In this document: piece after piece, positions 18,754-53,568 of the stretch
How positions within the stretch are numbered: the stretch's first letter is position 1
Layout: each line of letters opens with the position of its first letter
Notes under the pieces: generated by a model
The model's database searches: none
The model's input: only the letters and a program-made list of their open reading frames with translations
Told to the model about the DNA's origin: nothing
Program-made: the position numbers and the translations under genes
Assembly: GCA_019359535.1 (NCBI GenBank)
Contig: JAHHHE010000003.1
Location: forward strand, 3,109 to 67,108
Origin: Gloeocapsa sp. UFS-A4-WI-NPMV-4B04
GTDB lineage: Bacteria; Cyanobacteriota; Cyanobacteriia; Cyanobacteriales; Chroococcidiopsidaceae
DNA: 64,000 nucleotides
Direction of reading: 5' to 3'

Positions 18754-19542
18754 GTGAAAACCGACAGCATTTTCTATCGTCTGTTTCAAGAATTTCCCAG
18801 TATATTTTTTGAAATTATTAGCAATCCGTCTATAGAGGCTAATACTTATAATTTTTCATCTGTTTAAATTAAACAAACTGCCTTTCGCATTGATGGCGTA
18901 TTTCTGCCTGTCCAAGAAGTAAACAACTATATTTATTTTGTTGAAGTTCAGTTTCAATCAGATTCAGAATTTTACTCTCGATTCTTTGCAGAAATCTTTT
19001 TGTACCTTCGTCAGAATAAACCAAGAAACGATTGGCGTGCCGTCGTTCTATACCCAAGTCAGAGTGTAGATATAGGAGATATAAAACATTATTGTGAGTT
19101 TTTTGCAAGCCAGCGCGTCAGTCAAGTCTATCTAAATGAATTAAGTGAGGCGGCTGAATACTCAATTGGCATCGGAACCCTTAATTTAGTGATTTCGCCA
19201 GCAGCAAGAGCGGTTGGGCAAGCAAGGAGCCTGATAGATAAAGTGAGGCAAGAGATAGCCGATGAACTGCAACAGCAAAAATTCTTACAATTAATAGAGA
19301 CAATATTATTCTATAAATTGCCAAACACGAGTCGAGAGGAGATACAAGCAATGTTTGAATTGAGCGATTTAAAGCAAACAAGAGTGTATCGGGAAGCCGT
19401 ACAAGAAGGCGAGCAAAAGGCTAAGTTAGAAGCTTCCCCCAGGTTGTTGGCATTGGGGTTGAGCGTAAAGCAGGTAGCAGAGGCGTTAGGATTGAGCGTA
19501 GAAGAAGTAAGGCAGGCGGCACAAAATCAGTCCTCAGAGTGA
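18754..19542 (+). pseudogene. DUF2887 / Rpn-family PD-(D/E)XK nuclease-like gene with an in-frame TAA at 18865..18867
   Basis: The GTG at 18754 opens VKTDSIFYRLFQEFPSIFFEII...SSV*IKQTAFRIDGVF...VEVQFQ, in the same frame as ORF 19000..19542. The single stop lies at codon 38. Confidence 0.7.
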
Positions 19543-19725
19543 GGTTAATAGAGAAAAAGTGACAGCGCTTCTTAGTATACCAACTGCTAGCCTGATTAAA
19601 GGCGATGTCTCGCGACAAGCCGCTATGCGCCTACACACTTCACGCCGCGCAGTTGGTTAAGGTTGATTGCGATCGCACATTGTTAATTCCCAAGACGCGA
19701 TCGCAATCCTAGTAATTAGCTGAGT

Positions 19726-22074
19726 CTACCTAACCGTTTGCACAGGTTTCCAACTATTCAGGGAATCTCGCATTGAAGCCAACTCACTTAAATATTCATT
19801 TAGTTGTGCCTTTTTCTCCTCAAGTATTGCACGAATCTGATCTGTTTCTGCTTCTCGCGTTTCCCGTTCTTTTAGCAAACTATCAAACTCATCTTGAAAC
19901 CTTTTTATATAGTCATTAATTTGTTTCTCTGCATTTTTGAAATCATCTGAAACTTGTTTTTCAATGACTCGCTGTAAAAGTTCTTTGTTTCTAGATATTT
20001 GCTTATCTATATTAAGTTTGATTGCCTCTGATGTTTTGCGTAAATCAACTTCGTAGATGGAACGCTGCTCCTGAACTGGCACATCAACATAATAGACTTG
20101 ATCAGAATCACAGCAACGACTTCTTGTTCTTTTACCTTTGTGTGACCTTGTAAACACTTGTTGTTGATATTGAATTCGGGCATCAATTCCTGGAAAATCA
20201 AAACTAGGAAACTGAATTGGGTTAATATTCAGTTCAACTTGCAAAGCTTCTCCAAGATAGTTAGACAATTCGTCTGATATTTGTTGGATATCTTCTTGAA
20301 TTTTTTGGACTAACTCTTCTCGAATGCGTGTACCCTCTCTTACCAGACTATCTTGTGTGTCTATCCACCAACTTTGAATGTGAGGAGCGCAAAAATCATT
20401 TATGGTGCGTCCAATTTTTTCAGCCTCTTTCCGAGTCTTAACCCTAATTATGTATGGATCTAAGTTTTCATCTTGCTCAGGCTCAGGGTTGCTAAATGGT
20501 TCTGGTGTAGCACTAAGTAAAGCATCCATCAGAGATGATGCTATTTTGAAAGATTCTGCTAAAGCTTTGCCTACAATAGGAATAAGCTCCAACAAATTTG
20601 CGCCTATACCCCCAAACATTGTCCATAGATTAAATTCATTATTGTTATTACTGACAACTTCTATAGGTTTTTGCTTAACTTTAGGCTTCCGATGCTTAGA
20701 AGCTCTTGATTCTGCAATTTGAGTAATTTCATCCTCTATTTTAGTTTTAGCACCTTCAGCAAAAGCACTAATTCCTCCGCTAAATCCTTTAATAAGTGTT
20801 TGTTTTTGTTCCTCTACAGAAGTTTTTAGATTGTTAACTTTCTTTTGGGCAGACTCAGAACGTATTTTATACTCATCTACTTTCTGTTTGAGTGTTTCGA
20901 TTTCTATTTCCCACCCGCTTAATCGTGTGTTGAGGGTATCCTCAATCGCTTTTGCCGCCTTACTCATTTTTGCCAAAACATCACTTAAAAGATTCCAGCC
21001 GGAATTATGAATAATGGCTTGAATCACTGTATTTTCAATAGTGATAGTCCCGCTATCTTCTAAAGCTTGTGGTGCAATTATTTTAGGTGCAGGTGTTATT
21101 TGATTGCCTTGCTCATCTTCCTTAGCATATTTAGCACTAAAGAACCTTTTAAAGTCTTTAATTTGGCTTTCATCTGCTATACCTTGCTTGATTAGTTTTG
21201 CCAAAAGTCCTTGTCTAGCACTTGCTGGATAGATAATTGGATTCACAAAACCGAAATTAACTAACTCTTGTTGCAGACTTTTTATTACGTCATCAATATC
21301 TTGATCTTTGTCTGCTTTCTGATCTACTTTATTAAGAATAAAGTAAATTTTTCCTGTATTTTGCTTCAGAAAGTCACCACGATTTTCGGTCAATTCTCTA
21401 ATAAAAACGGAAAAAACGTTATCTCTGTAAGAAACATAATTTAGAACGAATACAATTGCATTGCAGGTTCGTAGCGCCTCTAGTGCAGTTCTCTTTAAAG
21501 CTGTTGTGTCAAAATTGGCAGACTCCCACTCGTTTGGGCCGGGGGTATCAACTAATGTGAAGCCATTTAGAGATGAGAGCGTGCTGATAGCTTCAATAGG
21601 ATGTTCTAACTCAAAGCGTATAGTATTGTCAGGATTGGCGTTAGCCCGAATATAATGAGTATGGTCTAGAAATTTTTGGCGAATCTCTCCAGCGTCACCC
21701 TCAGCAACTACAACGGCTCGTCTTTGCCCCTCTCGATACTCCAAAAGCCGGGGTTTTTGCCCAGCTTCAATGTGTCGGACATCGGTACGGCAGACTGTAC
21801 AAGATTTTACTTCACTCGGTAAAATATCTGCACCAATTAGAGCATTGAGGAAGGTGCTTTTACCTGCTTTCATAGCTGCAATGACAGCAACTTGATACTT
21901 TTGCTCCTGCAATGCTTTAAGAGCGTTGTTTAGATCGTCCTCAATACTGTGTAGTCCTTGGCTGTCGTTTCCTTCACTACGGCGACCTTCTCCAATTTCA
22001 TGAAGATACTGTACAAGTCGTATGCCAGTGCTGTAGATGCTATCGTGTGCTGCTTGGAACTGTTCGGATGACAT
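19726..22074 (-). CDS. Dynamin-family large GTPase (bacterial dynamin-like protein)
   Basis: GTPase motifs are G1 AMKAGKST, G3 DTPGP and G4 LNKVD. A hydrophobic paddle-like segment reads LWTMFGGIGANLLELIPIVGKAL. The C-terminal half is long and helical or coiled-coil. Confidence 0.8.
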   Translation of the reverse strand: MSSEQFQAAHDSIYSTGIRLVQYLHEIGEGRRSEGNDSQGLHSIEDDLNNALKALQEQKYQVAVIAAMKAGKSTFLNALIGADILPSEVKSCTVCRTDVRHIEAGQKPRLLEYREGQRRAVVVAEGDAGEIRQKFLDHTHYIRANANPDNTIRFELEHPIEAISTLSSLNGFTLVDTPGPNEWESANFDTTALKRTALEALRTCNAIVFVLNYVSYRDNVFSVFIRELTENRGDFLKQNTGKIYFILNKVDQKADKDQDIDDVIKSLQQELVNFGFVNPIIYPASARQGLLAKLIKQGIADESQIKDFKRFFSAKYAKEDEQGNQITPAPKIIAPQALEDSGTITIENTVIQAIIHNSGWNLLSDVLAKMSKAAKAIEDTLNTRLSGWEIEIETLKQKVDEYKIRSESAQKKVNNLKTSVEEQKQTLIKGFSGGISAFAEGAKTKIEDEITQIAESRASKHRKPKVKQKPIEVVSNNNNEFNLWTMFGGIGANLLELIPIVGKALAESFKIASSLMDALLSATPEPFSNPEPEQDENLDPYIIRVKTRKEAEKIGRTINDFCAPHIQSWWIDTQDSLVREGTRIREELVQKIQEDIQQISDELSNYLGEALQVELNINPIQFPSFDFPGIDARIQYQQQVFTRSHKGKRTRSRCCDSDQVYYVDVPVQEQRSIYEVDLRKTSEAIKLNIDKQISRNKELLQRVIEKQVSDDFKNAEKQINDYIKRFQDEFDSLLKERETREAETDQIRAILEEKKAQLNEYLSELASMRDSLNSWKPVQTVR

Positions 22075-22304
22075 ACTGATTTTAGAGCTAGGCTGGCTAA
22101 GTCGCCTACAGACTAACCAAATAGAAAAGTAACTGAGAACAGTAATTGCACTGATTAAAAAAAGTAATCACGCCATAACAAACCGAGACCAAATGTGCGA
22201 TCGCCACAAACAGGTTAGTCAGTCACTAATTTATAATTAAATTTTTTAAGATTGACTCGATCAAGCACGATGTTCACAGCGTAGCTGATGGGTCGTCGGT
22301 CGCT

Positions 22305-22427
22305 ACGCGCTGACATCGCACTCTTAGTAAAAAACGCGATCGCCTGCTCTTAACTTGACAAACCTAAAATCGCACCCAGAGATTACACGCTGACATCGCA
22401 CTCTTAGTAAAAAAGGCGATCGCTTGC
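22305..22427. repeat. Two 43-nt direct repeats spaced exactly 80 nt apart
   Basis: 22305..22347 and 22385..22427 (ACrCGCTGACATCGCACTCTTAGTAAAAAAsGCGATCGCyTGC) differ at 3 of 43 positions. Confidence 0.8.
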
Positions 22428-22494
22428 GACGGGCTTTGCCTACGCCTGAATGCCATGCTAAGGTAGATGTACATTTAAATGTACACTTACTACT

Positions 22495-22758
22495 ATGCCC
22501 AAGTATCTAACTATTACCGAAGCTCGGTAACAGATGTTAGGGTTGCCCGATCAGTTGGCAGATGAACCTATGATTATTACCAAGCGAGGGAAGCCCGTGA
22601 TGGTTGCACTCAGCTATGAGCATTTTGCCTCTCTGCTAGAGACGCTAGACATCCTTTCAGATTCCAAGTTTGCCAATCGGCTACAGGAGAGCATTGCTCA
22701 AGCTGATCAAGGCAAGACAATTAGCTGGGAAGAAGCCAAAGCACAATTAGGGCTGTGA
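22495..22758 (+). pseudogene. Phd/YefM-family antitoxin with an in-frame TAA at 22528..22530
   Basis: The ATG at 22495 gives [43 protein letters not shown]... The stop removes the conserved N-terminal strand unless translation restarts at 22534. Confidence 0.65.
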
Positions 22759-23084
22759 CTGAGCCAGAAGCTCCGATAGAGTACCGCATTGAACTGACTC
22801 TCCTGGCTTTAGAGATGCTGGCTGAAGTTAACGATCAGCGCCACAGGGAAGGCTTGACTAATCGTATTGAAAAACTTAAGTCTGAGCCGGAGAAACAGGG
22901 CAAGCCTTTGGGAGATATACTTAAGGGCTATCGTAGTGTGCGGGCTGTTGGTGAGCGATACCGAATTATTTACAAAGTAGACCGTAATCTTATAGTAGTT
23001 CTGATTGTGGTGTTGGACTCCGCCGACAAGGCAACAGAAGTGATATTTATGCCACGATTGAGCGCTTACTCCAGGAGTAGTTAG
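22755..23084 (+). pseudogene. RelE/ParE-family toxin with an apparent C-terminal frameshift near 23010..23015
   Basis: The frame in use ends ...LIVVLIVVLDSADKATEVIFMPRLSAYSRSS. The adjacent frame from 23015 reads GLRRQGNRSDIYATIERLLQE* (stop at 23078..23080), which is the usual C-terminus of this family. Confidence 0.6.
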
Positions 23085-23220
23085 TAGGCTATGTTGGAAG
23101 CTATAAACATGATCACTTACTCAATCTTCTAGCTGCCTCCAATTACTTGTCAGCGCTAATTTGTAGTTAAATTTTGTTAAGATTAATTCGACAAAGCGCG
23201 ATCGCCCTTGGAGACACTTG

Positions 23221-24906
23221 ATGCTGCGACTAGAACATATTAGTAAAATCTACCCCACAGGCGAAGTTCTGAAAGATGTCAACTGGGAAGTCAAACCAGG
23301 CGATCGCATTGGCTTAGTTGGGGTTAATGGTGCAGGCAAATCTACCCAACTGAAAATCATTGCGGGCGAAATTGAACCCACCGCCGGAGAAGTGATCCGT
23401 CCTGCGAGTTTACACATCGCTTACCTTACCCAAGAATTTGAAGTAGATCCCACACGCACTGTAAAAGAAGAGTTGTGGCACGCCTTCGGCGAAGTAAACA
23501 CAGTACATGAATCGCTAACACAGGTTCATCGAGATCTGGAAAGTGCCAATCCAGAACAATTAGACAAATTGATCCATAAAATGGATCGCTTGCAACGGCA
23601 ATTTGAAGCCCTCAACGGCTATGGATTAGAGGCACAGATTGAGAAAATATTACCAGAAATGGGTTTTGAGCAATCAGATGGCGATCGCCTTGTCAGCGCT
23701 TTTAGTGGTGGCTGGCAAATGCGGATGAGTTTGGGCAAAATTTTACTCCAAAAGCCCGATTTATTGCTACTAGACGAGCCAACAAACCACCTTGATCTAG
23801 AAACGATAGAATGGTTGGAAATTTACCTTAAAGGGCTAACAACCCCAATGGTAATTGTCTCCCATGACCGAGAGTTCCTTGATCGCCTCTGCACCCAAAT
23901 TGTCGAAACTGAGCGCGGTGTTTCCAATACTTACCTTGGCAATTATTCTGCTTATTTATTACAAAAAGCAGAGGCGCAAACAGTACAACTAAGTGCCTAC
24001 GAACGCCAGCAAAAAGAACTAGAAAAACAACAAGCCTTTGTTGATCGCTTCCGTGCTAGTGCCACTCGTAGCACCCAAGCTAAAAGCCGTGAAAAGCAAT
24101 TAGATAAAATTGAGCGGGTTGAAGCACCGACAGGTGGGTTAAGAACTTTGCACTTCCGCTTTCCCCCAGCACCGCGTAGTGGGCGAGAAGTGGTACTGAT
24201 TGAAGACTTGGTGCATACCTACGACGAGAAAATTTTATTTTTAGAAGCGAATTTGCTGATTGAAAGAGGCGATCGCATTGCTTTCCTTGGCCCCAACGGT
24301 GCTGGTAAATCTACTCTACTGCGCCTGATTACGGGCATGGAAAAACCCACAGAAGGCACAGTTAAATTAGGGGATCATAATGTGATCCCCGGCTACTTTG
24401 AGCAAAATCAAGCCGAAGCGCTAGAACTTACCAAAACTGTGATGGAAACGATCCATGACGAAGTACCTGACTGGGACAATCAAGAAGTCCGCACCTTATT
24501 AGGACGCTTTCTATTTAGTGGTGACACAGTATATAAAAAAGTAGCAGCCTTGAGTGGAGGCGAAAAAGCCCGCCTTGCTTTGGCAAAAATGCTGTTGCGT
24601 CCAGCTAATTTACTTATATTAGATGAGCCGACTAACCACCTAGATATTCCAGCAAAAGAAATGCTAGAAGAATCAATTCAGCACTATGATGGTACGGTGA
24701 TTGTTGTTTCCCACGATCGCTATTTCATTTCCCAAGTTGCCAACAAAATTGTTGAGCTCCGCGACGGCGAGTTTCGCATCTATCGCGGGGATTATCATTA
24801 CTACCTAGACAAAATTGCGGCAGAAAAAGAGCAGGCAAGGTTAGAGGCGATCGCTGCTGAGAAAGCTGCTAAGAAAGCGGCTAAGGCTACTGCTAAACGT
24901 AAATGA
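23221..24906 (+). CDS. ABC-F family ATPase (two ATP-binding cassettes, no transmembrane domain)
   Basis: Two Walker A motifs (GVNGAGKST and GPNGAGKST), LSGG signatures, and a K/A-rich C-terminal tail. Confidence 0.9.
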   Translation: MLRLEHISKIYPTGEVLKDVNWEVKPGDRIGLVGVNGAGKSTQLKIIAGEIEPTAGEVIRPASLHIAYLTQEFEVDPTRTVKEELWHAFGEVNTVHESLTQVHRDLESANPEQLDKLIHKMDRLQRQFEALNGYGLEAQIEKILPEMGFEQSDGDRLVSAFSGGWQMRMSLGKILLQKPDLLLLDEPTNHLDLETIEWLEIYLKGLTTPMVIVSHDREFLDRLCTQIVETERGVSNTYLGNYSAYLLQKAEAQTVQLSAYERQQKELEKQQAFVDRFRASATRSTQAKSREKQLDKIERVEAPTGGLRTLHFRFPPAPRSGREVVLIEDLVHTYDEKILFLEANLLIERGDRIAFLGPNGAGKSTLLRLITGMEKPTEGTVKLGDHNVIPGYFEQNQAEALELTKTVMETIHDEVPDWDNQEVRTLLGRFLFSGDTVYKKVAALSGGEKARLALAKMLLRPANLLILDEPTNHLDIPAKEMLEESIQHYDGTVIVVSHDRYFISQVANKIVELRDGEFRIYRGDYHYYLDKIAAEKEQARLEAIAAEKAAKKAAKATAKRK

Positions 24907-25214
24907 ACAGAATCAGGACCTAAGAAACCCTTGGATAAGTTTTGCGAAAATTGCCACAACGATTATTGTTTGGTTTTGTCATAGTTTCCCAACAATTTTT
25001 CGCAACTTGAAATTGAGAACTAAGTTTATTTTTTCTAAGCTTTTAATTGCTGCTTACTTTTTGGTACTTACTTTAGAAGCAAAGAGCGATCCCCGCGTTA
25101 AAAGTAATAAAAGAAGTAGAAAAACTTTTAAAAACAACAAAAATTTCCCTTGCAGGTACAAATAGCAGTGGTATTATTGCGATGAGTTATCCAAAAAATA
25201 AAGGGCAATATTCT

Positions 25215-26810
25215 ATGACCCAAGCACCTGTCGCTCCCGTGGTGCTAGTCATTTTAGACGGGTGGGGCTACCGTGAGGAAACAGAAGGAAATGCTATTGC
25301 AGGCGCTAATATTCCTGTAATGAGAAGCCTTTGGGCTGCTTATCCTAAAACACTAATCAAAACTTCCGGTAAAGCAGTTGGGTTGCCAGAAGGTCAGATG
25401 GGGAATTCGGAAGTAGGACATATAAATATTGGCGCTGGGCGAGTAGTACCGCAAGAATTAGTGCGGATCTCAGATGCCGTTGAAGATGGTTCTATTTTGA
25501 GCAACCCAGCCTTGGTACAAATTTGTACTGAAGTTCGGAAGCGCAATAGTAAGTTGCACTTAATTGGGCTAACATCTTTGGGTGGAGTTCATTCCCATCT
25601 AAGTCATTTGTTAGGATTACTTGACTTAGCCAAGGCACAACAAATTTCAGAAGTTTGCATTCATGCGATTACAGATGGTCGTGATACTCTGCCGACAGAC
25701 GGGGTAGAAACAATCCAAAAAGTCCAAGATTACATAGATTTGTGTGGTGTTGGGCGCATTGTTACTGTTAGCGGTCGCTATTACGCAATGGATCGCGATC
25801 GCCGATGGGATAGAGTTAAACGCGCCTATGATGTGATGACACAAGACGAAATCACAGATAGTCGTTCTGCAATTGAAATTATCAAAGCATCCTACGCAAC
25901 AGGAGTAACAGACGAGTTTATTAACCCCACACGGCTGGCATCTGGATCTGTAGAACCAGGGGATGGAGTGATATTCTATAACTTCCGTCCAGATAGAGCA
26001 AGACAATTAACCCACGCTTTCGTCGCCAGCGATTTTAATGGTTTTGAACGGCAGCAAATTAGCCCTTTATCTTTTGTGACGTTTACTCAGTACGAGCCAG
26101 ATTTGCCAGTTTCAGTTGCCTTTGAACCGCAGAACTTGAATAATATCTTGGGAGAAGTGATTGCCCAGCATGGGCTAAAGCAGTTTCGGACTGCTGAGAC
26201 AGAGAAATATGCCCATGTCACGTACTTTTTTAATGGTGGACTTGAGGAGCCTTTTGAAGGTGAAGATCGGGAACTGGTAATGAGTCCAATGGTGGCGACT
26301 TATGATAGCGCTCCCGCAATGTCAGCTGACGCTGTTACCGATGTCGCGATCGCAGCCGTTAAAAAACGTATTTACTCATTGATTGTGATTAACTACGCTA
26401 ACCCCGATATGGTGGGACACACCGGACAGATACCAGCTACAATTACAGCAGTTGAAACAGTTGATCGATGTTTGGGGCGCTTGCTAGAAAGTATCAGCAA
26501 AGTCGGGGGTACAGCAATTATCACTGCCGATCATGGTAACGCTGAATATATGCGGGATGAGCATGGCAATGCCTGGACAGCGCATACTACCAATCCAGTC
26601 CCGTTGATCCTTGTTGAAGGAGAAACAGCAAAAATTTCGGGACATGGTAATGATGTTACCCTGCGAACGAATGGCAGTCTTGCCGATATTGCGCCGACAA
26701 TTCTAAATATTTTACAGCTACCGCAACCTGTTGAAATGAAAGGTTCTTCTCTAATAAAACAAGCTGAATATGAGGTAAGTGCTACTCGTACTGCTGTACA
26801 AGCTGTTTGA
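25215..26810 (+). CDS. gpmI: 2,3-bisphosphoglycerate-independent phosphoglycerate mutase
   Basis: iPGM-type translation (VLVILDGWGY...NSEVGHINIGAGR). I prefer the ATG at 25215 over 25182. Confidence 0.93.
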   Translation: MTQAPVAPVVLVILDGWGYREETEGNAIAGANIPVMRSLWAAYPKTLIKTSGKAVGLPEGQMGNSEVGHINIGAGRVVPQELVRISDAVEDGSILSNPALVQICTEVRKRNSKLHLIGLTSLGGVHSHLSHLLGLLDLAKAQQISEVCIHAITDGRDTLPTDGVETIQKVQDYIDLCGVGRIVTVSGRYYAMDRDRRWDRVKRAYDVMTQDEITDSRSAIEIIKASYATGVTDEFINPTRLASGSVEPGDGVIFYNFRPDRARQLTHAFVASDFNGFERQQISPLSFVTFTQYEPDLPVSVAFEPQNLNNILGEVIAQHGLKQFRTAETEKYAHVTYFFNGGLEEPFEGEDRELVMSPMVATYDSAPAMSADAVTDVAIAAVKKRIYSLIVINYANPDMVGHTGQIPATITAVETVDRCLGRLLESISKVGGTAIITADHGNAEYMRDEHGNAWTAHTTNPVPLILVEGETAKISGHGNDVTLRTNGSLADIAPTILNILQLPQPVEMKGSSLIKQAEYEVSATRTAVQAV

Positions 26811-26941
26811 ATAGTTAGTAATTTTAAGTTAAAAGAGGTAAAAATTAGGAGTGGACTAAGTTTAGTCTAGTTGTTGACAGGTTACTTCTTTAACTCAACA
26901 CTTAAAACTACTATTAGTAATAAGCTAATAAAATTATCACC

Positions 26942-27175
26942 ATGACTATTAATAACATCGTAGAAGCAATTTGGGTATTCTCTGCTGTAGGGTTGACTAT
27001 TTTAGTGCTACTGCATAGTCCCAAAGGAGATGGAGTTGGAGCTATTGGTGGACAAGCTCAGTTATTCAGTAGCACTAAGAGTGCAGAAACTACACTGAAC
27101 CGAGTCACTTGGGCGCTAACGGTGATATTTTTGGGTCTAACTGTAGTTTTGAGCGCAAATTGGCTAGGGCGATAA
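26942..27175 (+). CDS. secG: Preprotein translocase subunit SecG
   Basis: A 77-aa two-transmembrane-helix protein with LLHSPKGDG, directly after gpmI. Confidence 0.85.
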   Translation: MTINNIVEAIWVFSAVGLTILVLLHSPKGDGVGAIGGQAQLFSSTKSAETTLNRVTWALTVIFLGLTVVLSANWLGR

Positions 27176-27209
27176 CAACAAAAGACAAGGAGACAAGGAA
27201 AGAATATTA

Positions 27210-33014: not shown

Positions 33015-35129
33015 TTATGTATCAACAGGTATTGTTGGAGGTGTGGAACCAACTTCTTCTATACTCCAATCTGATTCAGAGATACCCACTGCTGTTAAAA
33101 GACGACGACAAAAACTTACGTGACCTTTTGCCGAATTATTTTGAAGAACCCAAATACCATTTGATAATTGATACCAGTGTTTAGGATACCTTTTACCCTC
33201 AATATTATCGTATAAATAAGTTCCTAATATCTGTCGTGCTTTTTCAAAATATTGTGGACGATTTTTTATTACCCACTCCGTTGTTAATTTCATTAATTGC
33301 AGCCATGTTTTGTCTGGTACAACAATTGTTTCGCCACAAATTGTAACTACCTTTGGTATTCCATATGATTTGGTGTCTATTAGTGGAGGTTCTCCAATAG
33401 CAGACCAAATCTCTAAAAACTTTTCGGTTAGAAAATTAGCACGTTCTATAATAGACTCTTCATTCCATTGCTCAATATTTTGAGAAAAATATTCATTGTT
33501 GAGCTTTAAAGCATGATTCGCTAAAATCTCCTTTTTTGTTAAAAATGGTGCATTAGAAAGAGCTGAGTTCCACTCTTGGGTAACTAAAGTTAAATTTCCA
33601 AGAGTATGTAAATAACTTTGATATGTTTGTTCTAGTTTGTCTCCTAGTAAAGTTTTCCAATCTTCACTAGGTGTTTGCGGTAATATATGCTCAATAGTTG
33701 GCTCATTATCAAGAACACCAAATCCACCTGTACCTTTTGAAATATGACGATTAATCGTTTCTAAAATTAAACATAGTTTTTGCCTACTAGGATTACCATA
33801 TAATTTAGCTGTTTGAATAGCTTGTTTAATGCTGCGGTCTGGTGGATAACCTTTAGTCAATAAAACTTTTGTCAGCGCTTCCTTAAAAGGTAGCTCATTG
33901 GTCATTTCAGTAGTAATGTCATGCCAAAAAGTTGGAAATATCTTATTTAAGTAATTAGTAGGCTCACTGCAAACAAAACGTCGCACTATGTAGTTTTCTA
34001 ATACCTTAAATAAATGTAGTAAATCATCAAAACTTATTTGTTTAGATTCATAAGCATCGTAAGCCATAAGTAAGAAAGGATAAGTTGTTTGAATATCTAA
34101 TGTATTGAGGCGTTTAAGAGCTTCTTTGATATCCTTGTTTTGCTCATTTTCTGGTCGCAGCAACTTGTCTTAATACTCAGCAAAACGACGCAAATTCGCT
34201 ATTTCTTCAATAAATGCCTGAGTAGTAAACTCTTTCTCAAGGCGATCGCGAAAACGAGCATATATATGTTCTTCACTGCAAAGCACCCTCGAACACATAG
34301 CCAAGTAATGGCGAATAAAAGCTGTTAATTCACCAAGACGTGACTTGCCAACTGTACGTTTTTCCTGAAGTAAATTTTCAATCTTTTCCCATTGAGTTGT
34401 AAAGACACTTGCTTGTTGTGCTACGGGTAGCTTCATCGCAATGTAATTACGTACTAAATCTGCCTGCGATAAGCTTTTACCTTTAGCATTCAAACTTTCA
34501 AATATTTTATAAGGACTCTCATCATGGCTAAGATTGATAAATACAACTTGAAAACAGTTGGACAATACAATGAAAAATTGCTCAGGTATTACCTCAGAAA
34601 TATCAATTTTTCGTTTTAGCTCTTTACTAGAATAAGCATGGGCGCTAGGTATATTAGATTCAGTAGTAGTGATAACTTCTCCTAAAATAACTTTGGTGTA
34701 TAAATCGCGATCGCCATATTTAGTAGTTGGTAAGAGCTTAAAATGTACGTTTCCATCCTCATCAGCATTAACGAGCATTCGTTGAATTCTTCTTGCCAGA
34801 CCTGGATGAGTCTCTTGTACAATGTCACGTAATGCACAAAATAAAAGCGAAATAGTTGTCAAACGCTGCTGACCATCTACAACTTTAAAAGCAGGAATTA
34901 CACCATTAATTGTTCCGTCATTGATAACAACTAATGAACCTAGAAAATGCTCTGGCTCTTTTTCTGGTTGATATTCTTCATAAATGGCAAGTGCATCATT
35001 GAGCAGCGTTTCCCAGTTACTTTTTCCCCAACTATATTCGCGTTGAAAGTGGGGCAAGACATAATGAATATCTCCACCACCACTAAAAACAGTTGATATT
35101 TTGAGACTATCTGCTTTCATTTCATCCAA
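33015..35129 (-). pseudogene. GmrSD-like DUF262 + DUF1524 (His-Me finger) enzyme split by an in-frame TAA at 34170..34172
   Basis: The N-terminal half carries FQREYSW and DGQQRLTT (DUF262). The C-terminal half carries TIEHILPQ...LGNLTLV...N (DUF1524). The junction reads ...RRFAEY*DKLLRPENEQ in a single frame. Confidence 0.75.
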
Positions 35130-43745: not shown

Positions 43746-44037
43746 TTATCCTTCAAGTAGTTGAATTTGCTGCGAACCGTGTATAACTGCAAGGATGTCT
43801 ATTTGATCAGGTTTAATGAGCGTAAATAATGCGGTAAGAACCTTCAATTACTTCACGAATTTGCTTAGTCTCAAACTCTGGCACAGTTCTAGCTGATAAG
43901 GGAAACTTGGCAATTTGTTCAGAACGTTTGGTAAGTCTGTCAATCAGCCTTTGAGCATATCCAGGAGAATTTTGAGCTATGTAAGTGTAAATTGCTGATA
44001 GGTGCTGTACTGCTGTATCCGTCCAAAAAACTTTCAC
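43746..44037 (-). pseudogene. ParE/RelE-family toxin truncated by a 1-nt frameshift at about 43815
   Basis: The ORF ends ...EGSYRIIYAH*. The next frame continues KPDQIDILAVIHGSQQIQLLEG* (stop at 43746..43748), which is the family-typical C-terminus. Confidence 0.65.
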
Positions 44038-44222
44038 TTCCTTAATCCGAACTTTGCACGTACCTGATCAACAGAAATAACTTTACCCGCTTTACTGTCA
44101 GTAAGCCCAGCTTCAATAACTTGCCTAACATATATTTCATCCATTAAGTCATCCCAAGTTGAAGCTTCTGGCAACTTGTCAATCAAACGTCGAGCTTCTT
44201 CTTTGATACTTCTAGTTTCCAT
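44034..44222 (-). CDS. Small antitoxin-like protein upstream of the ParE-like gene
   Basis: A 62-aa ORF that overlaps the toxin start by 4 nt. This is the typical type II TA arrangement. Confidence 0.6.
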   Translation of the reverse strand: METRSIKEEARRLIDKLPEASTWDDLMDEIYVRQVIEAGLTDSKAGKVISVDQVRAKFGLRK

Positions 44223-45474: not shown

Positions 45475-46125
45475 ATGAAGCTTGTTATTCACGGCAAAAA
45501 TATTGAGATCACTGATGCTATTCGTGAGTATGTGCATCAGAAGATTGAAAAGGCAGTGAATCACTTTCAGAATTTGACAACTGAAGTAGACGTGCATTTG
45601 TCAGTAGCCCGCAATCCCAGAATAAATACTAAGCAAGCGGCTGAAGTGACAATTTACGCCAACGGAAGCGTGATCCGCGCTGAAGAAAGTAGCGAAAGCT
45701 TATATGCCAGCATAGATTTGGTAGCTGATAAAATTGCTCGGCAATTACGTAAGTACAAAGAAAAACGTCAAGATCAGAAAACTCATAGCCAGCCCAAATT
45801 AATTCCCGTAGAAGGACAACCAGTGGTAGCGGATTTAATTGGCGATCGCACTCCAGAACTACCCAGCGAAGTTGTCCGCACCAAGTATTTTGCCATGCCA
45901 CCAATGACAATTGAAGCAGCCTTAGAGCAGTTGCAACTGGTGGATCATGACTTTTATATGTTCCGCAATGCCGAAACAGGAGAAATTAATGTAGTTTACG
46001 AGCGCAATCACGGCGGCTTTGGCGTAATTCAACCCCGCAACGGTAATAGCCACAGTAACAGTAAAAACGGGAAAACTGCTGATAACATTACAGAGGCAGA
46101 AAAACCTCGCTCCAGTAAGGTATAA
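45475..46125 (+). CDS. hpf: Ribosome hibernation promoting factor, long form (LrtA-like)
   Basis: An ATG after a GGGAGA SD sequence, then [20 protein letters not shown], with a C-terminal dimerisation domain. Confidence 0.9.
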
Positions 46126-46181
46126 GCTGGGGTAGGGGTGTAGAGGAGAATATATTTGATCGCCTCTTGCCTCTTACCTGC

Positions 46182-46646
46182 TTAACTTTTTGCCTCTAAT
46201 TGTTGGATGATTTTGAGTGACTCTTCAATGTGTCCTTTAAAGTTAAACTGAGAGTTGAAGACATTTTGAACAATTCCCTGCTGATCAATAACATACGTGA
46301 CACGCCCTGGTAATAGTCCAAAGCTTGAAGGTACGCCATAAAGCTTCCGTACTTGATTGCCATTATCGCTCAAGAGAGAAAAAGGTAGTTGGTACTTGGT
46401 AGCAAATCGCTGATGGGATTCTGGTGAGTCAGCGCTAATGCCTATGACTTCTGCTCCAGCAGAGTTAAAAACCTCATATTGATCACGAAAGGCGCAGGAT
46501 TCTTTAGTGCATCCGGGTGTGTCATCCTTGGGATAAAAATAGACGACGACACATTTTTTGCCGAGAAAATCTTTGAGGCTGACAGGTGTTCCAGACTGGG
46601 AAGAAAGTGTAAAATCTGGTGCAGTATCTCCAACTTTGACTGGCAT
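46182..46646 (-). CDS. bcp: Thiol peroxidase (Bcp/PrxQ-type peroxiredoxin)
   Basis: The active site DTPGCTKESCAF is present. Confidence 0.9.
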   Translation of the reverse strand: MPVKVGDTAPDFTLSSQSGTPVSLKDFLGKKCVVVYFYPKDDTPGCTKESCAFRDQYEVFNSAGAEVIGISADSPESHQRFATKYQLPFSLLSDNGNQVRKLYGVPSSFGLLPGRVTYVIDQQGIVQNVFNSQFNFKGHIEESLKIIQQLEAKS

Positions 46647-46891
46647 AATGGGTGAGGAGTTGTTAACTTTTGTATCCTATCGTGATTGTTCAGAGTAATG
46701 CCATCTTTAAGCAATATCTGACGATAAGCCGATGCAGCGTCTACGCTTTTTTACAAAGTGTTACTGTAAATTGTTGCAGTAGGATAAGCTTAGAACAGAT
46801 TCTACTTAAGCTGGGGTGAAATGCTGCTAAAAACAGAACTTGTCTCAGAAAAAAAGAATGAAATTCTAACTCAGCAGCGATATGTAGTTAC

Positions 46892-47524
46892 TTGGCAAAG
46901 ATGATCATGAAAAAGCCTCACGTCCTTACAAGGCTTAGTTTTACGGCTAGTACGCTCTTGCTGATAACTGGATTGGCTCAACCGAGTTTCTCTTTTCCAG
47001 CATTGCCTACTGTGTTGGGGAACAATAACCACTCTGCCATCAGTAGTATTAAGCAGGCAGAAGCGCATAACAATTCGGGAGTTGAGCTAGCTCAACAGGG
47101 CAAATTAGCGCAGGCGATCGCAGCGTTTAACAAGGCGATTAAAATTTATCCTAGCTTTGAAAATGCCTACAATAATCTAGGACTTGCTCTCGGTAGTCAG
47201 AACAAGTTTGCAGAAGCAGTTGCCGCCTTCAAGCGAGCTTTGGCAATTAATCCCCAGAATTTTGAAACTTATAACAATTTAGGTATTGCGCTCGGTAGTC
47301 AAGGAAAGTTGGCAGAAGCGATCGCAGTATTTAATCAAGCAATTCAAATCAATCCTAAAGATCCTACTTCTCGACAAAATTTAGGGGTTGCTTTTTGGAG
47401 TCAAGGTAAGTTGCCGGAAGCAGTCGCATCTCTGCAAAAAGCTCAAGATTTATACTCAGCGCAAAACAACACCGAGGGCGTTGCTCATGTAGGAGAAATA
47501 TTACAGCAAATAAAATTACCTTAG
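46892..47524 (+). CDS. TPR-repeat protein with a signal peptide
   Basis: Four 34-aa repeats of the form A..AF..AI.I.P....AYNNLG.AL..QGK..EA. Confidence 0.8.
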   Translation: MAKMIMKKPHVLTRLSFTASTLLLITGLAQPSFSFPALPTVLGNNNHSAISSIKQAEAHNNSGVELAQQGKLAQAIAAFNKAIKIYPSFENAYNNLGLALGSQNKFAEAVAAFKRALAINPQNFETYNNLGIALGSQGKLAEAIAVFNQAIQINPKDPTSRQNLGVAFWSQGKLPEAVASLQKAQDLYSAQNNTEGVAHVGEILQQIKLP

Positions 47525-47622
47525 AAAACTCCGTGCAGAAGGGACGAAGTTCAACTCAATTTTGCAATTTTAGTTGTATGTGGGTAAGTTTTAGCAGTTA
47601 TAGAGTTTAAATTAATAAAAAA

Positions 47623-50441
47623 ATTATTAATAATTGGAATTTAGTAGAAAAACTGCAATGCTTATTGAGAAGTTACGGTTTCAATCCCTAAAAGGGATTA
47701 TTGATAATTAAACTTGCTAACAATAGGGATTATTGATAATTAAAACTTTACGCCATTCAACAAAGTGTTTTTTGAATGCAGTTTCAATCCCTAAAAGGGA
47801 TTATTGATAATTAAAACGGTTTGTTAGCCAATTTCGCAGGTCAGCAGGACTAAGTTTCAATCCCTAAAAGGGATTATTGATAATTAAAACGTTAAGAATT
47901 TTAGAATTGTTCTTGGCAGTCTGCAAATCAACTGGGTTTCAATCCCTAAAAGGGATTATTGATAATTAAAACCTAGCTCAATTTGCTTTACCTGAGACGA
48001 AACTTGTTTCAATCCTTAAAAGGGATTATTAATAATTAAAACTTAAAACGCACTTGCACTGTTTTGCTCATTGCTTTGCTTAGTTTCAATCCCTAAAAGG
48101 GATTATTGATAATTGGAATTCCAGATATTTATAAGAGGCTTATCTTCTAACCCGTTAGTTTCAATCCCTAAAAGGGATTATTGATAATTGGAATTTCTAG
48201 GAGCATCAGTGATAGCTGATCCTGTTTTCGTTTCAATCCCTAAAAGGGATTATTGATAATTGGAATATCTTCTATTTTGGCTGGCTTGCCTACCCACATA
48301 TCAGTTTCAATCCTAAAAGGGATTATTGATAATTGGAATCAAAATCTGATACTTCAATGTCAACAGACCAATTTGTTTCAATCCCTAAAAGGGATTATTG
48401 ATAATTAGAATTAGACACTGCTTGTCCTTGAAAGCCCATATAATCGTTTCAATCCCTAAAAGGGATTATTGATAATTGGAATATGTCTCAGCCATCATTG
48501 AAGGACTTTGAGCTGCAAGGTTTCAATCCCTAAAAGGGATTATTGATAATTGGAATTGGAACTGGAGCTACAAGTAAGCCGTTCTGATCAGTTTCAATCC
48601 CTAAAAGGGATTATTGATAATTGGAATGGGTTGGTTCCAAACTATGACCGCGCCACAGACTGTTTCAATCCCTAAAAGGGATTATTGATAATTGGAATCA
48701 TTTTTTGGGTACGTTCCCGCAAAAATCGCTCTGTTTCAATCCCTAAAAGGGATTATTGATAATTGGAATTCGAGCGGAATATATTGAGGCTAGCTTATGA
48801 GCTTGTTTCAATCCCTAAAAGGGATTATTGATAATTGGAATCTGGTTACTACGATGCAAAATTCAAGACTAATACGATTCTTGTTTCAATCCCTAAAAGG
48901 GATTATTGATAATTGGCATATGGTGCTGGTTCTGTTCCGGTTGACTGGTTACGTTTCAATCCCTAAAAGGGATTATTGATAATTGGAATTTGGAGAAGGC
49001 AATTTCATCACATCCCGAACTAATTAAGTTTCAATCCCTAAAAGGGATTATTGATAATTGGAATCCAATACTGAGATTTCCTAAATCGGGCATTACCTTG
49101 TTTCAATCCCTAAAAGGGATTATTGATAATTGGAATTCTGAGAATTAGGGCGTTGTACCATCGCCAGTAACTTGTTTCAATCCCTAAAAGGGATTATTGA
49201 TAATTGGAATATTAGTAGCTAAAATGGAAAAATTTATCATTCAATTTGTTTCAATCCCTAAAAGGGATTATTGATAATTGGAATCCAATACTGCTAAACA
49301 TATTGCCAACGTTGCTTAAGTTTCAATCCCTAAAAGGGATTATTGATAATTGGAATTGCCACAGGTTTATTGCAAAGTTCAGAAGGCGATGTTTCAATCC
49401 CTAAAAGGGATTATTGATAATTGGAATCTTCATGAGCGAACGAGGAGCGCCAATCACTTCGATAGTTTCAATCCCTAAAAGGGATTATTGATAATTGGAA
49501 TCTGATTTTGCAAGCTCATCAATAGAAGATATTTGTTTCAATCCCTAAAAGGGATTATTGATAATTGGAATTTGGAATCTATGCGGTAGCTTTTGATACT
49601 TACATAGCGCTTTGTTTCAATCCCTAAAAGGGATTATTGATAATTGGAATCCGTATGCCCTGCGTATACACTCCCATCGACTTTTGTTTCAATCCCTAAA
49701 AGGGATTATTGATAATTGGAATTGATTTAGCTCCTGGTCTAATTCGTCTCTGTGTTTGTTTCAATCCCTAAAAGGGATTATTGATAATTGGAATTTAAAT
49801 AAGATGTACTTATTAGCCGCGCCCACAAATCGGTTTCAATCCCTAAAAGGGATTATTGATAATTGGAATTCAACAACAGCGCCAGGGGGTTGCAGTTCAA
49901 ATATGTTTCAATCCCTAAAAGGGATTATTGATAATTGGAATAATATGTCCGAGTCCATGCCGACCTGGGAATAAATAGTTTCAATCCCTAAAAGGGATTA
50001 TTCATAATTGGAATCTTAATCGCCTCTAGAGACGCTTGCATATTCGGGTTTCAATCCCTAAAAGGGATTATTGATAATTGGAATTTTGATTTGCAGTCCG
50101 ATAAAGATTGTTTTTCCAGTTTCAATCCCTAAAAGGGATTATTGATAATTGGAATCCTGATTTGATCAGCCAGTTAGAACCTGTATCTGTGTTTCAATCC
50201 CTAAAAGGGATTATTGATAATTGGAATTAGTCACACTAGAGAAAAAAACCGCAGTGTAATGTTTCAATCCCTAAAAGGGATTATTGATAATTGGAATTTT
50301 GTTCACTTAATATTAATGACCCTGTTTGTGGGTTTCAATCCCTAAAAGGGATTATTGATAATTGGAATTGAAAACTCCTGAAGAAAAAGCAGCCGAGCTT
50401 CGGCGTTTCAATCCCTAAAAGGGATTATTGATAATTGGAAT
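47623..50441 (-). CRISPR. CRISPR array with 38 full 37-nt repeats plus 2 partial repeats
   Basis: The plus-strand consensus is GTTTCAATCCCTAAAAGGGATTATTGATAATTGGAAT. The first full repeat is at 47678 and the last at 50405..50441. Spacers are 33-45 nt, mostly 33-38. An internal 7-bp hairpin is AATCCCT/AGGGATT. On the minus strand the repeat ends in ATTGAAAC, so transcription probably runs from the cas2 side. Partial repeats lie at 47623..47640 and 47726..47746. Confidence 0.98.
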
Positions 50442-50747
50442 AGCTGGAGAGCAAAAGACTTGTCATATTGAGTTTTCAAGGTACGTTTGCGCGGATTTGT
50501 AAAATTATAGCATTGTAGCCATTTGGCGCAGCAATAGAACATTTGTTTTTTAGCTGAAAGTAAGTCTTAGTAAGGTTTTCAAAAGTTGCGCGATCGCCTA
50601 TTCAGGACTAACAGCAGCTAAACCCTTATCCCACAAGGAACACAAGTTAAAATAAAGGTCTGCTGTAACAAACACCCACCTATCCGCGCCATCTTTCAAA
50701 GTAACTCAAAACAAGCGTTAAAAAACTTAGAAAACCTAATTGTAATT
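50442..50747 (-). promoter_or_regulatory. CRISPR leader, with a candidate -10 box
   Basis: A 306-nt non-coding stretch between cas2 and the newest repeat. The minus-strand TATAAT at 50504..50509 lies about 63 nt upstream of the first repeat. Confidence 0.4.
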
Positions 50748-51020
50748 TTAGGCAAAAAAGATAGTGTTATCTACAAGTTCTTCACCGCCGATACGTTCTA
50801 CTTTATCTTTACAGCAAGCACACAGGAAGTAAAAGCGAATACTGTCTTGCTCGGGTTTGATAATTTTACTCAAACGCGATCGCAACTTAGCATACTGAGT
50901 AGCTGTTAACTCGCATTCAAATAAACTGTACTGCATCCATTGATCATAAGATTTCAGAATTTTGTGTATTTTATTACGGCGGTTATCTTCTGGAATGTCG
51001 TAAGAAATGACAACGTTCAT
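50748..51020 (-). CDS. cas2: CRISPR-associated endoribonuclease Cas2
   Basis: A 90-aa protein starting MNVVISYDI...RRNKI, directly next to cas1 and the leader. Confidence 0.9.
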   Translation of the reverse strand: MNVVISYDIPEDNRRNKIHKILKSYDQWMQYSLFECELTATQYAKLRSRLSKIIKPEQDSIRFYFLCACCKDKVERIGGEELVDNTIFFA

Positions 51021-51051
51021 ATAATTGAGTTAATACTAATAAATACTGTCC

Positions 51052-52068
51052 TTACTTCAAAACCAGTGGTGGATATTTATCAGTTTCACCCATCAGATAT
51101 TTCGCTAGCAATCGCGCTTGAATCTCAAATGCTTCTTGGTAAGTGCATTGTCTCCCCATAACTGGATGCTTGAACTTAGACTGCTTCTTTTGCTCATATA
51201 GTCTCAACAATATTTTTAGTGCTTCCTGAGTCAATGAAACTGCTCTGCTGACTGGTTCTGTAGTAAAATCAGCTGGTGTGAGCGATCGCTTGTTAATTGC
51301 ACTCAGTACCATCGCATCCACCACCAACGGTCGAAACTCCTCCATCAAGTCAAGTGCTAACCCTGGACGACCGTAACGCTGTAAATGCAGATATCCTAAA
51401 TACGGGTCAAAACCGACAATATTAACTGCTCCCTGGACATCATGACGCAGTAGCGCATAGCCAAAACTCAACAGCGCATTTACTGGATCTGTTGGTGGAC
51501 GGCGGTTTCTAGCTTTAAACTCAAAACCTTCCGCTCGAATCATCTGCTCAAATACACTAAAGGAACCCGCACTACCCGCACCTTCTAAGCCTCGCAGTGA
51601 ATCAATTGTGGTAGTTTTGTCTAACGGTGCGATCGCCTGTTCAATTCACGCGATTGCGGCTTGCAAATCAAGTTCTGAACTTTCTCGTTCTCGACGTAAT
51701 AAAGAATTGCGGTAGTTTTTTAATTTACCCCTAATAAAACCCCTAACTACGTGCAAAGCTTGTGCAGATTCTCCAGCTGCTTGCCATTGAGCAGAACGTA
51801 CAAATATATTCTTAGTTAATTCTGGTTCTAATCTGCCTAAATATCGCCCAGTACCTGTAAGAAAACTTAGGGGAATATTGCGTTGTAAAAGTTCTGTGCT
51901 CGCACTTGGTGAAACAGTAGCTCGTCCTAATACTACAACGCCATCAATTTTAATCAAAGGTACATCTAAAAGTGTTTCCTTTTGCGCTTTTACTTGCAAA
52001 CGTTCATCTGCTTTCCCGATATACGCATCTTCCTGAGTAATATAAACTGTTCCCATAATCATGACCAA
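51052..52068 (-). pseudogene. cas1: cas1 with an in-frame TGA at 51646..51648
   Basis: ORFs 51646..52068 and 51052..51543 share one frame. The read-through translation is ...LDLQAAIA*IEQAIAPLDKTTTIDSLRGLEGAGSAGSFSVFEQMIRAEGFEFKARNRRPPTDPVNALLSFGYALL. Confidence 0.85.
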
Positions 52069-52071
52069 AAA

Positions 52072-52665
52072 TTATTTTATTTCCTGATAACGTTTAACTT
52101 TATCTACTGCTTGGGGTAAACACTGTTGATAAAGACTGCATCCCCGACAGCGTTGTGTATAGATTGCTGGCGGTATTTTTCCACTTTGCTGTATATTTTG
52201 GATAGCTTGAATAGTTGCGATCGCTGTTACTCTCAGTTCAGCAGATATATTAACTAATTGACGTTGATGAGATTGAGCATAATAAACATAGCCTTGAGTT
52301 ATTTTTTGCCCTATCATTTCCTCTAAACAAAGAGCTTGAGCGCAGACTTGTAACTCATCATTATCCCATTCTCTTTTATGACCGCGTTTGTATTCAATTG
52401 GATACCAATTACCATCAACTTCTTCAATTAAATCAGCTTTGCCGATTAATTTGTATTGCTCTGATTTCAACCAAACGGCTCTAACTTGCCAGGTATCTTC
52501 TCGGTGTCCTTCTCCTAAAGTGTGAACGCGATCGTGCAAGCTTGTACCTTCAATCGTGTACTGGTTATCTAGAAACTCGCCAGCACAAAACATCCGCCAG
52601 TAGCGATGTGAACAATAAGCATATTGATTCAATGCTGCAATAGGAATATAATCATGGTTATTCAT
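52072..52665 (-). CDS. cas4: CRISPR-associated exonuclease Cas4
   Basis: An N-terminal Cys plus a C-terminal CRGCSLYQQC cluster, and a RecB-like core (DLIEE...EYK). Confidence 0.88.
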   Translation of the reverse strand: MNNHDYIPIAALNQYAYCSHRYWRMFCAGEFLDNQYTIEGTSLHDRVHTLGEGHREDTWQVRAVWLKSEQYKLIGKADLIEEVDGNWYPIEYKRGHKREWDNDELQVCAQALCLEEMIGQKITQGYVYYAQSHQRQLVNISAELRVTAIATIQAIQNIQQSGKIPPAIYTQRCRGCSLYQQCLPQAVDKVKRYQEIK

Positions 52666-52743
52666 ATTGTTTTAATTAATAAATTTAATCAAATTTTTAA
52701 TAGCTAATTTTAAGACAAAACTACTTAAATGTATTCGTTGCTT

Positions 52744-53568
52744 TTATTTTGCAGAACTTTTTAAACGTCGTACTATACCCATACCCATAGGCGTTTTTCG
52801 CCCTATACCACTAAATAAAGCAAAGTTTGATAAAGCATTAATTTGTTTAATTGTCAATGGTTGAGCATCTCCTAAAATGCGATAACTAATATTACCAACA
52901 CAACCAATAAATTTACTACGTGAATCAGCAATTATTTCTGTACGAATATCAAAATAACTAGGAAAGATTACTTGTATTAAGTCTGAAGATAATTCAATAT
53001 TGCTGTATTTATTCCAACGATTAATCAGACTATTAAAAACACAGTCTCTAGTTGGTAAAGCTGAGTCATACTCTTGTTGACGGAATGCAGTCGGAGTACA
53101 AAAACTTAAATTAATTTGGCGTTCAGTCTCTGAGGCTTGCTCATACAATTATTTATAAGTACAAAAATTTGCCCAAGGCTGAGTTGATTGCGGAGTACCT
53201 AAAATGCTGATAATTTTTAAATTCGCAGGGCCAAGATGCCAAGGATGGGAGGGATTTAGGTTAAGCCAAAGTTGAGTAAGGTTGCTGAATAAGGCATCAT
53301 CTAACAGGGAAATTCGCAACCAACAAGGTGTACCCGCTTCAATTACTTGTTTGTGTTCCCATTGTAGCCTGTAGTTACTTGTTGCAGATACTTGTAGAGG
53401 ACTGAGGGTAAAGGCTTTTTCTGTTTTTTGTGCGTGGAGGCGATCGCCTAATGTTTTATCAACAGAACTGACTAAAGTTAGAAACAGTGCGTGTATATGT
53501 TTACCGCTCAGGTAGCCAGATGGAATTGGGGACTGGGGGAGGAGGTTGAGGACTAAGCTATGAGGCAT
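52744..53568 (-). pseudogene. cas6: cas6 with an in-frame TAA at 53149..53151
   Basis: ORFs 53149..53568 and 52744..53148 are contiguous in one frame (...NFCTYK*LYEQASETERQ...). The C-terminal Gly-rich loop GIGRKTPMGMG is present. Confidence 0.8.

Follow-up and report, generated by a model that had tools for sequence, protein, structure and literature searches.

Seven apparently young pseudogenes among the defense and toxin–antitoxin genes of a Gloeocapsa contig

Introduction

Bacterial pseudogenes have long been expected to cluster among dispensable genes. Here, a 64,000-nucleotide (nt) stretch of contig JAHHHE010000003.1 from the cyanobacterium Gloeocapsa sp. UFS-A4-WI-NPMV-4B04 was analyzed (hereafter the window, with positions counted from its first letter), in which seven defense and toxin–antitoxin (TA) genes each carry one disabling lesion beside uninterrupted core genes. 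The closest described counterparts are the young pseudogenes of Salmonella, where a single inactivating mutation was found in 346 of 378 pseudogenes and most pseudogenes were strain-specific (Kuo and Ochman 2010, PMC2916853). The window genes resemble these in having one lesion per gene, a sequence that is otherwise nearly unchanged, and a closest relative without the lesion. They differ in density, which is much higher in the window (half of the accessory genes within 45 kb), and in kind, as the window lesions are mainly point nonsense mutations and 1-nt insertions or deletions (indels), in contrast to the prevalence of short deletions in Salmonella. The phenomenon as such is already known, being the familiar behavior of dispensable bacterial genes.

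The individual systems also have described counterparts. Like degenerate or partial type I-D loci of the CRISPR-Cas kind in cyanobacteria (for type I-D biology, PMC10212523, PMC7689449), the window locus combines cas3', cas6, cas4, cas1d, cas2 and a WYL-type regulator with a 37-repeat array of the CRISPR-DR5 type. It departs from them in that cas10d, csc2 and csc1 are absent from the window and in that cas1 and cas6 carry stops, while the array is still homogeneous. The two type II TA pairs (Phd/YefM–RelE and ParD-like–ParE) conform to the known course of TA decay, with the antitoxin upstream of and overlapping the toxin and the toxin disabled in both pairs, except that in one of them the antitoxin has already been hit too. 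Loss of the toxin before the antitoxin is the sole viable order in which such a pair can be lost. The GmrSD-type gene retains the full domain set of the corresponding type IV restriction enzymes (DUF262 plus DUF1524) and 85% identity to a syntenic orthologue; unlike those enzymes, it has an inter-domain stop, whereas the orthologue in a sister species is broken by an insertion sequence (IS) instead. Rpn/YhgA-like nucleases with intragenic antitoxins have also been described (PMC10400941, PMC5350276), and related to them is the DUF2887 family, which joins a predicted PD-(D/E)XK nuclease domain to a helix-turn-helix (PMC3045609). The window DUF2887 gene resembles such nucleases in that its N-terminal stop would permit C-terminal products only, but DUF2887 genes are not known to contain an internal antitoxin ORF.

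Lesions confined to defense and addiction genes

A preliminary description of the sequence had claimed exactly one disabling lesion in each of seven defense and addiction genes. When each gene was re-translated in one frame, all seven lesions were recovered where it had placed them, namely five in-frame stops and two indels, one base being lost in RelE and one gained in ParE. The RelE lesion, previously given as a frameshift near 23013, is a 1-nt deletion at about 23012. The seven genes are as follows.

18754 to 19542, plus strand: DUF2887 pseudogene (Rpn/YhgA-like PD-(D/E)XK nuclease); GTG start, TAA at 18865-18867, codon 38
22495 to 22758, plus strand: Phd/YefM antitoxin pseudogene; ATG at 22495, TAA at 22528-22530, codon 12, ancestral CAA
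22755 to 23084, plus strand: RelE/ParE-superfamily toxin pseudogene; 1-nt deletion at about 23012 (gtg g.t gtt gga, the dot marking the deletion)
33015 to 35120, minus strand: GmrSD-type (DUF262+DUF1524) type IV restriction enzyme pseudogene; TAA at 34170-34172, codon 317 of 701
43746 to 44037, minus strand: ParE toxin pseudogene; 1-nt insertion at about 43818-43821 (tac gct c att aaa)
51052 to 52056, minus strand: cas1d pseudogene; TGA at 51646-51648, codon 137 of 334, ancestral CGA
52744 to 53568, minus strand: cas6 pseudogene; TAA at 53149-53151, codon 140 of 274, ancestral CAA

Family-typical sequence was likewise confirmed beyond the lesions. With the lesion masked, the Pfam alignment is continuous across it in six genes (DUF2887, Phd, RelE, ParE, cas1 and cas6), and both GmrSD domains lie in one frame.

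The core set used for comparison comprised 58 coding sequences: 25 ribosomal protein genes (earlier counted as about 30) together with secY, adk, infA, rpoA, truA and prfA in positions 1-18665, and 27 other chromosomal genes. The accessory set of about 14 consisted of the seven broken genes, the ParE antitoxin, cas2, cas4, cas3', and the genes for a DUF433 protein, a WYL regulator and Nmad3. Interruptions are absent from all 58 core genes, which bears out the claim that the housekeeping genes are free of lesions; they are open reading frames (ORFs) of normal length, with near-complete Pfam coverage in those scanned. The difference between seven broken genes in 14 and none in 58 is significant (Fisher p=2.3e-6) and persists when the accessory count is raised to 18 (Fisher p=1.5e-5). 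Weighted by coding length, the chance of all seven lesions landing in accessory DNA is P=1.5e-5, and the bias is also found against the 27 non-ribosomal core genes alone (p ~1.5e-4, hypergeometric, calculated by hand).

The DNA came from a unialgal, non-axenic culture isolated from Utah desert soil (run SRR12347921) and was sequenced on an Illumina NovaSeq (2x150) and assembled with metaSPAdes (PMC8354539). A contig from the Logan assembly of the same run (L210) is 100% identical to window positions 50413-63568 (13,156 nt) and shows the same cas1 and cas6 stops, so that the split genes are present in both assemblies; a truncated Cas6 fragment of 139 amino acids (aa) is also recorded in the Logan assembly. 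Two different assemblers agree on these Illumina data. Together with the accessory bias, this agreement on the two cas stops supports the earlier view that the lesions are not random sequencing error. No match was obtained with the exact proteins of prfA, the dynamin-like gene and the ParE antitoxin, or with a 74-aa remnant of Phd and the N-terminal fragment of GmrSD.

Ancestral states of the broken genes

A search across genome contigs with prfA as the query found no sister strain, the best match being 87% identical at the amino-acid level. Relatives of the individual genes have sense codons or contiguous frames at every lesion site, the sole exception being a DUF2887 gene on contig L070 that is itself multiply broken. 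As had been proposed, ancestral codons could be recovered from relatives at all five stops (GAA in DUF2887, CAA in Phd, TAT in GmrSD, CGA in cas1 and CAA in cas6).

The DUF2887 gene reads FSSV(stop)IKQTAFRIDG, and PF11103 spans positions 1-200 of its 200 across the stop when the lesion is masked with X. The corresponding codon is GAA or GAG in 14 of 15 prfA-linked homologues and TAA in the remaining one, giving an ancestral change of GAA>TAA. A near-invariant Glu codon, which we take to be part of the putative nuclease active-site motif, is replaced by TAA, and a full-length match with an intact Glu is therefore not obtained. Early frame closure occurs in 22 of 108 environmental (metagenome) DUF2887 genes, and broken prfA-linked DUF2887 genes are also present on contigs L070 and L050. 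The first of these, from the unrelated Nostoc calcicola FACHB-3891, has TAA at the same Glu codon (L070:14809-14811), a second stop, and CTG where the start codon is expected. The possibility that this stop is a recurrent or programmed variant was considered and rejected, since metagenomes contain 0 TAR against at least 120 GAR codons at the site and the L070 gene is multiply broken. The G>T change makes the window sequence palindromic (GTTTAA A TTAAAC), an effect that it does not have in L070. A hotspot templated by this quasi-palindrome is a speculative origin for the change, one that would fit the window and not L070.

The Phd antitoxin reads MPKYLTITEAR(stop)QMLG, with PF02604 spanning 3-73 of 74 across the stop, and a close homologue on contig L085 reads TEARQQMLG with CAA at the stop position (CAA>TAA). 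The RelE start overlaps the Phd stop. The RelE-like ORF turns atypical at about 23012; restoring one base gives IVVLIVxVGLRRQGNRSDIYATIERLLQE followed by a stop at 23078-23080, and the repaired protein matches PF05016 at 2-87 of 89 in one alignment across the lesion. The residue count of three RelE homologues (P0121, P0123 and P0124) agrees with the repaired frame. The ParE ORF ends in YRIIYAH at a stop in its native frame (43813-43815), and removing one base yields YRIIYAxIKPDQIDILAVIHGSQQ, with the restored frame stopping at 43746-43748 and a PF05016 match at 1-88 of 89. The sequence YRIIY-x-IKPEQIDVLAV of two ParE homologues (P0122 and P0125) has a single residue in place of the 4 nt found in the window. 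The RelE and ParE homologues used for these frame comparisons are only 48-77% identical to the window proteins. The partner of ParE is uninterrupted; the toxin is broken in both pairs, and the antitoxin is hit in Phd–RelE only.

44034 to 44222, minus strand: cognate ParE antitoxin, 62 aa, intact; alignment with P0122 and P0125 over their N-terminal parts, no Pfam match

A concatenated Phd, RelE and ParE query returned only six database matches, all of them aberrant long ORFs; P0121 to P0125 are over-long ORFs in which RelE, ParE or Phd is fused or frameshifted to neighboring sequence. This suggests that broken TA genes are common in public assemblies, in a sample biased by query length. The L085 contig is hairpin-like (L085:3795-4552; GCA_003428985.1, QQTX01000379.1): in place of the prfA 3' end it has the C-terminus of Phd and the N-terminus of RelE, after which come inverted copies of Phd and the prfA end, and a 353-aa prfA–Phd fusion protein (P0126) is annotated as a result. 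This arrangement is probably a misassembly.

The GmrSD gene reads RRFAEY(stop)DKLL, with the stop in the linker that joins the two domains; GmrSD_N (DUF262) and GmrSD_C (DUF1524) share one frame divided by the TAA at 34170. Since over 100 homologues, each a single chain of about 700 aa, span 97-100% of the repaired query, the locus is best read as one interrupted gene and not two. Its syntenic orthologue in the sister species (contig L087 of GCA_030446505.1, 85% aa identity) has TAT (Tyr) at the stop position (TAT>TAA). That orthologue is itself cut by an IS (DDE_Tnp_1, L087:10187-11066), flanked by the target duplication GGAGAAAAGCyAGA. An Nramp fragment of 48 aa lies on this contig too.

The CRISPR-Cas locus

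In addition to the broken cas1d and cas6, the following elements belong to the locus.

47678 to 50441, minus strand: CRISPR array of 37 repeats (GTTTCAATCCCTAAAAGGGATTATTGATAATTGGAAT), 29 copies identical; Rfam CRISPR-DR5, TRF and regular-expression scans
50748 to 51020, minus strand: cas2, intact; PF09827, 2 nonsynonymous and 1 synonymous lineage-specific changes
52072 to 52665, minus strand: cas4, intact; Pfam and NCBIfam matches, 8 nonsynonymous and 5 synonymous lineage-specific changes (sister lineage, 0 and 7)
53605 to 55680, minus strand: cas3' (type I-D helicase), intact; PADLOC Cas3d 2e-59, NCBIfam cas3_core

The gene order is WYL regulator, DUF433, cas3', cas6, cas4, cas1, cas2 and array. 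The cas1 gene reads AAIA(stop)IEQ, and PF01867 spans 1-283 of 283 across the stop; contig L081, which has CGA at the site (CGA>TGA), encodes an intact homologue of 334 aa (P0001) with 96% identity. The Cas1 homologues are named type I-D Cas1d by NCBI. The cas6 gene reads CTYK(stop)LYEQ, with the stop at the boundary between the Cas6_N and Cas6 domains (PF19308 and PF10040), and L081 has CAA at this position (CAA>TAA).

The type I-D set is represented by Cas3', Cas6, Cas4, Cas1d, Cas2 and the repeat array. In the canonical type I-D order, as seen on contig L082, cas10d, csc2 and csc1 lie between cas3' and cas6, whereas in the window only 36 nt separate the cas3' stop from the cas6 ATG (positions 53568-53605). 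Searches of the 64-kb window by tblastn with the L082 Cas10d, Csc2 and Csc1 proteins found none of the three, and no similarity was seen between the cas3' genes of L082 and the window. Homology with the 95%-identical L081 contig ends 1 nt upstream of the cas6 ATG, where L081 has a 30-aa end of a different gene. Because the array is still homogeneous, with its 29 identical repeats, the decay of the locus is likely to be recent. Self-targeting spacers were sought against the window and only chance matches of 11-16 nt were obtained, 64 kb being a weak test.

Age of the lesions and selection

The cas genes were compared with L081, at 95.0% nucleotide identity over 3158 nt ungapped, with contig L083 as the outgroup for polarizing changes. 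The pairwise ratio of nonsynonymous to synonymous substitution rates (dN/dS) between the window and L081 is 0.05-0.13 for cas6, cas4, cas1 and cas2. Because these values are so low, the cas genes must have been under purifying selection for most of the time since the split from L081, and, given a relative that is 95% identical with sense codons at both cas sites, the breaks are recent, in keeping with the preliminary description.

In cas4 and cas2 together, 10 nonsynonymous and 6 synonymous changes are assigned to the window lineage against 0 and 12 in the sister (p=0.0009). Because the excess of amino-acid changes lies in genes that are themselves uninterrupted, the whole adaptation module is drifting, beyond the two stop-bearing genes. 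This excess is hard to reconcile with sequencing error. Approximately 12 excess nonsynonymous changes over approximately 2,090 nonsynonymous sites correspond to a neutral period of ~0.6% divergence. According to the spectrum of this lineage, 5.7% of substitutions in the accessory genes create stops, and five stops in 10.5 kb correspond to ~0.8% divergence. The expected stop-creating classes are 75% C>T-class, 16% C>A-class and 5% T>A, and the observed numbers are 3, 1 and 1. A mutator or deaminase signature was considered and rejected, as the substitution spectra are alike in the window and sister lineages and the mixture of stops is as expected. One short episode of relaxed selection, combined with ordinary mutation, would cover both the number and the kinds of lesions.

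Interpretation and rival explanations

The seven genes are very probably young pseudogenes that arose by ordinary point mutation under relaxed selection, a reading that involves no new mechanism and leaves only the local density as notable. Among the substitutions, three are C>T transitions and two are transversions (G>T and T>A); the indels are a 1-nt deletion and a 1-nt insertion. These mutations would have persisted because purifying selection has ceased to act effectively, in this Gloeocapsa lineage, on the affected genes: those for CRISPR adaptation and processing, the type IV restriction enzyme, the Rpn-like nuclease and the two TA pairs. Core genes would be struck by the same kinds of mutation, and only the dispensable class would show lesions because selection purges those that fall in core genes. 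At the CRISPR locus, absence of the effector genes would have left cas1, cas2, cas4 and cas6 without anything to serve, and these genes would then have drifted, with the amino-acid excess in cas4 and cas2 and the nonsense mutations in cas1 and cas6 as the outcome. In the TA pairs, disabling the toxin would have left the antitoxin free to decay; both genes are hit in Phd–RelE and the toxin only in the ParE pair. We infer that a single episode of relaxation lies behind all seven lesions.

Several points weigh against this account. Independent assembly covers the cas1 and cas6 stops, the other five lesions being backed statistically by the gene-class bias. The test of relaxed constraint covers the cas operon alone, and when the four cas genes are pooled the contrast is weak (p=0.09; 30 synonymous and 24 nonsynonymous changes in the window lineage, 33 and 12 in that of L081). 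The spread of one lesion per gene is slightly more even than random (p=0.06 length-weighted, 0.17 per gene), and, for a free-living bacterium, seven broken genes among about 14 accessory ones is a high local density.

The evenness of the spread bears on adaptive disarmament, in which the loss of immunity genes (CRISPR, GmrSD and Rpn-like) and addiction genes (RelE and ParE) would have been positively selected in a desert-soil Gloeocapsa. Lower autoimmunity or toxin cost, or DNA uptake, are possible benefits, and one knockout per gene would be needed. Exactly one lesion in each gene hit, with the slight under-dispersion, agrees with this idea, as do the independent inactivation of GmrSD by an IS in the sister species and the hits to the toxins of both TA pairs. 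However, the stops seen are already close in number and type to what neutral drift over ~0.6-0.8% divergence predicts, and no cost that their loss would relieve is obvious for the Phd antitoxin, cas1 and cas6. The lesions lie at 14% to 80% of gene length, with no bias toward early, fully disabling sites, and the window offers no self-targeting spacer, although 64 kb is a weak test. We therefore regard positive selection for loss as unlikely. The preliminary description had invoked relaxed or negative selection: relaxation is supported by the cas4 and cas2 contrast and by the interference genes missing from the window, while negative selection, in the sense of adaptive loss, is neither required nor shown. 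Slightly less credible is the idea that some of these genes are split and still functional, with termination–reinitiation at the inter-domain stops of GmrSD and cas6 yielding two cooperating halves. GmrS and GmrD do occur naturally as separate proteins encoded by two-gene systems, both stops fall between Pfam domains, and a TTG follows after two codons in GmrSD and immediately (0 codons) in cas6. Nevertheless, the closest homologues, more than 100 for GmrSD as well as those for Cas6, are all single chains, no Shine-Dalgarno-like sequence was noticed, although no formal scan was made, the cas operon is under relaxed constraint overall, and splitting would leave the other five lesions unexplained.

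A further alternative is laboratory domestication, in which the mutations would date from years of phage-free culture. The strain is kept in culture collections (PMC8354539), yet seven hits and approximately 12 excess missense changes in ~10 kb amount to ~0.6-0.8% neutral divergence, which, judged by ordinary bacterial mutation rates, would lie far beyond decades of culture. The missing effector genes argue in the same direction, and domestication is accordingly very unlikely. Sequencing, assembly or consensus errors as the source of false stops and frameshifts are even less probable. Although the culture was non-axenic, its assembly is apparently metagenome-derived and five lesions lie outside the independent re-check, errors would not have spared 41 kb of core coding sequence (p=1.5e-5), the NovaSeq data were re-assembled by Logan with identical sequence over 13,156 nt including two stops, and both indels lie outside homopolymers, the longest runs close by being 2 nt (RelE) and 3 nt (ParE). 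The missense excess in cas4 and cas2 and the missing effector genes represent real decay at the same locus. Finally, the genes might still be expressed through programmed recoding (readthrough or frameshifting) or phase-variable switches, an idea that draws on the family-typical sequence downstream of every lesion and that we consider extremely improbable. Four of the five stops are TAA, and reading the sequence context by eye revealed no repeat tract, slippery heptamer (X XXY YYZ) or leaky stop context at any of the seven sites, including both indels. Close relatives have ordinary sense codons or contiguous frames, and the DUF2887 stop variant has 0 metagenome matches against at least 120 for the Glu codon. 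The preliminary description had also ranked readthrough and phase variation as the less likely alternative, and that ranking stands.

If the seven genes are young pseudogenes, they are best annotated as such and not as split "hypothetical" fragments, and the strain should not be credited with working type I-D adaptation or CRISPR RNA processing, GmrSD restriction, or RelE or ParE toxins. The window would also provide a clean, small example of the fast turnover of defense and addiction genes relative to neighboring core genes, with a relaxed period that can be roughly dated to ~0.6-0.8% neutral divergence.

Neighboring genes and further observations

Two candidate lesions in core genes were rejected. 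The 5' end of the GHL10 gene merely runs past the window edge, and the tail of truA is a variable C-terminal extension. At the 3' end of truA (window 15999-16114), the TruA C-terminal tail cannot be aligned with that of contig L208, which is 96% identical on both sides; the length differs by 83 nt, and the catalytic domain is intact. This tail looks like a fast-evolving, non-conserved segment.

Between the DUF2887 and Phd–RelE pseudogenes lies an intact gene for a 782-aa bacterial dynamin-like GTPase (window 19726-22074, minus strand), with a weak PADLOC match to LeoBC (8.5e-8). A 66-aa DUF433 gene (window 55670-55870, minus strand) is located between the WYL regulator and cas3', overlapping the cas3' start by 11 nt, and no partner adjoins it. 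DUF433 proteins are commonly antitoxin-like components, and this gene may be the remnant of another TA pair. Further along, an intact gene for Nmad3 (nucleotide modification associated domain 3; window 62015-62872, minus strand) adjoins two small ORFs of 72 and 71 aa without a family match (window 61457-61896, plus strand). Together, these three may form another small accessory cassette, free of lesions.

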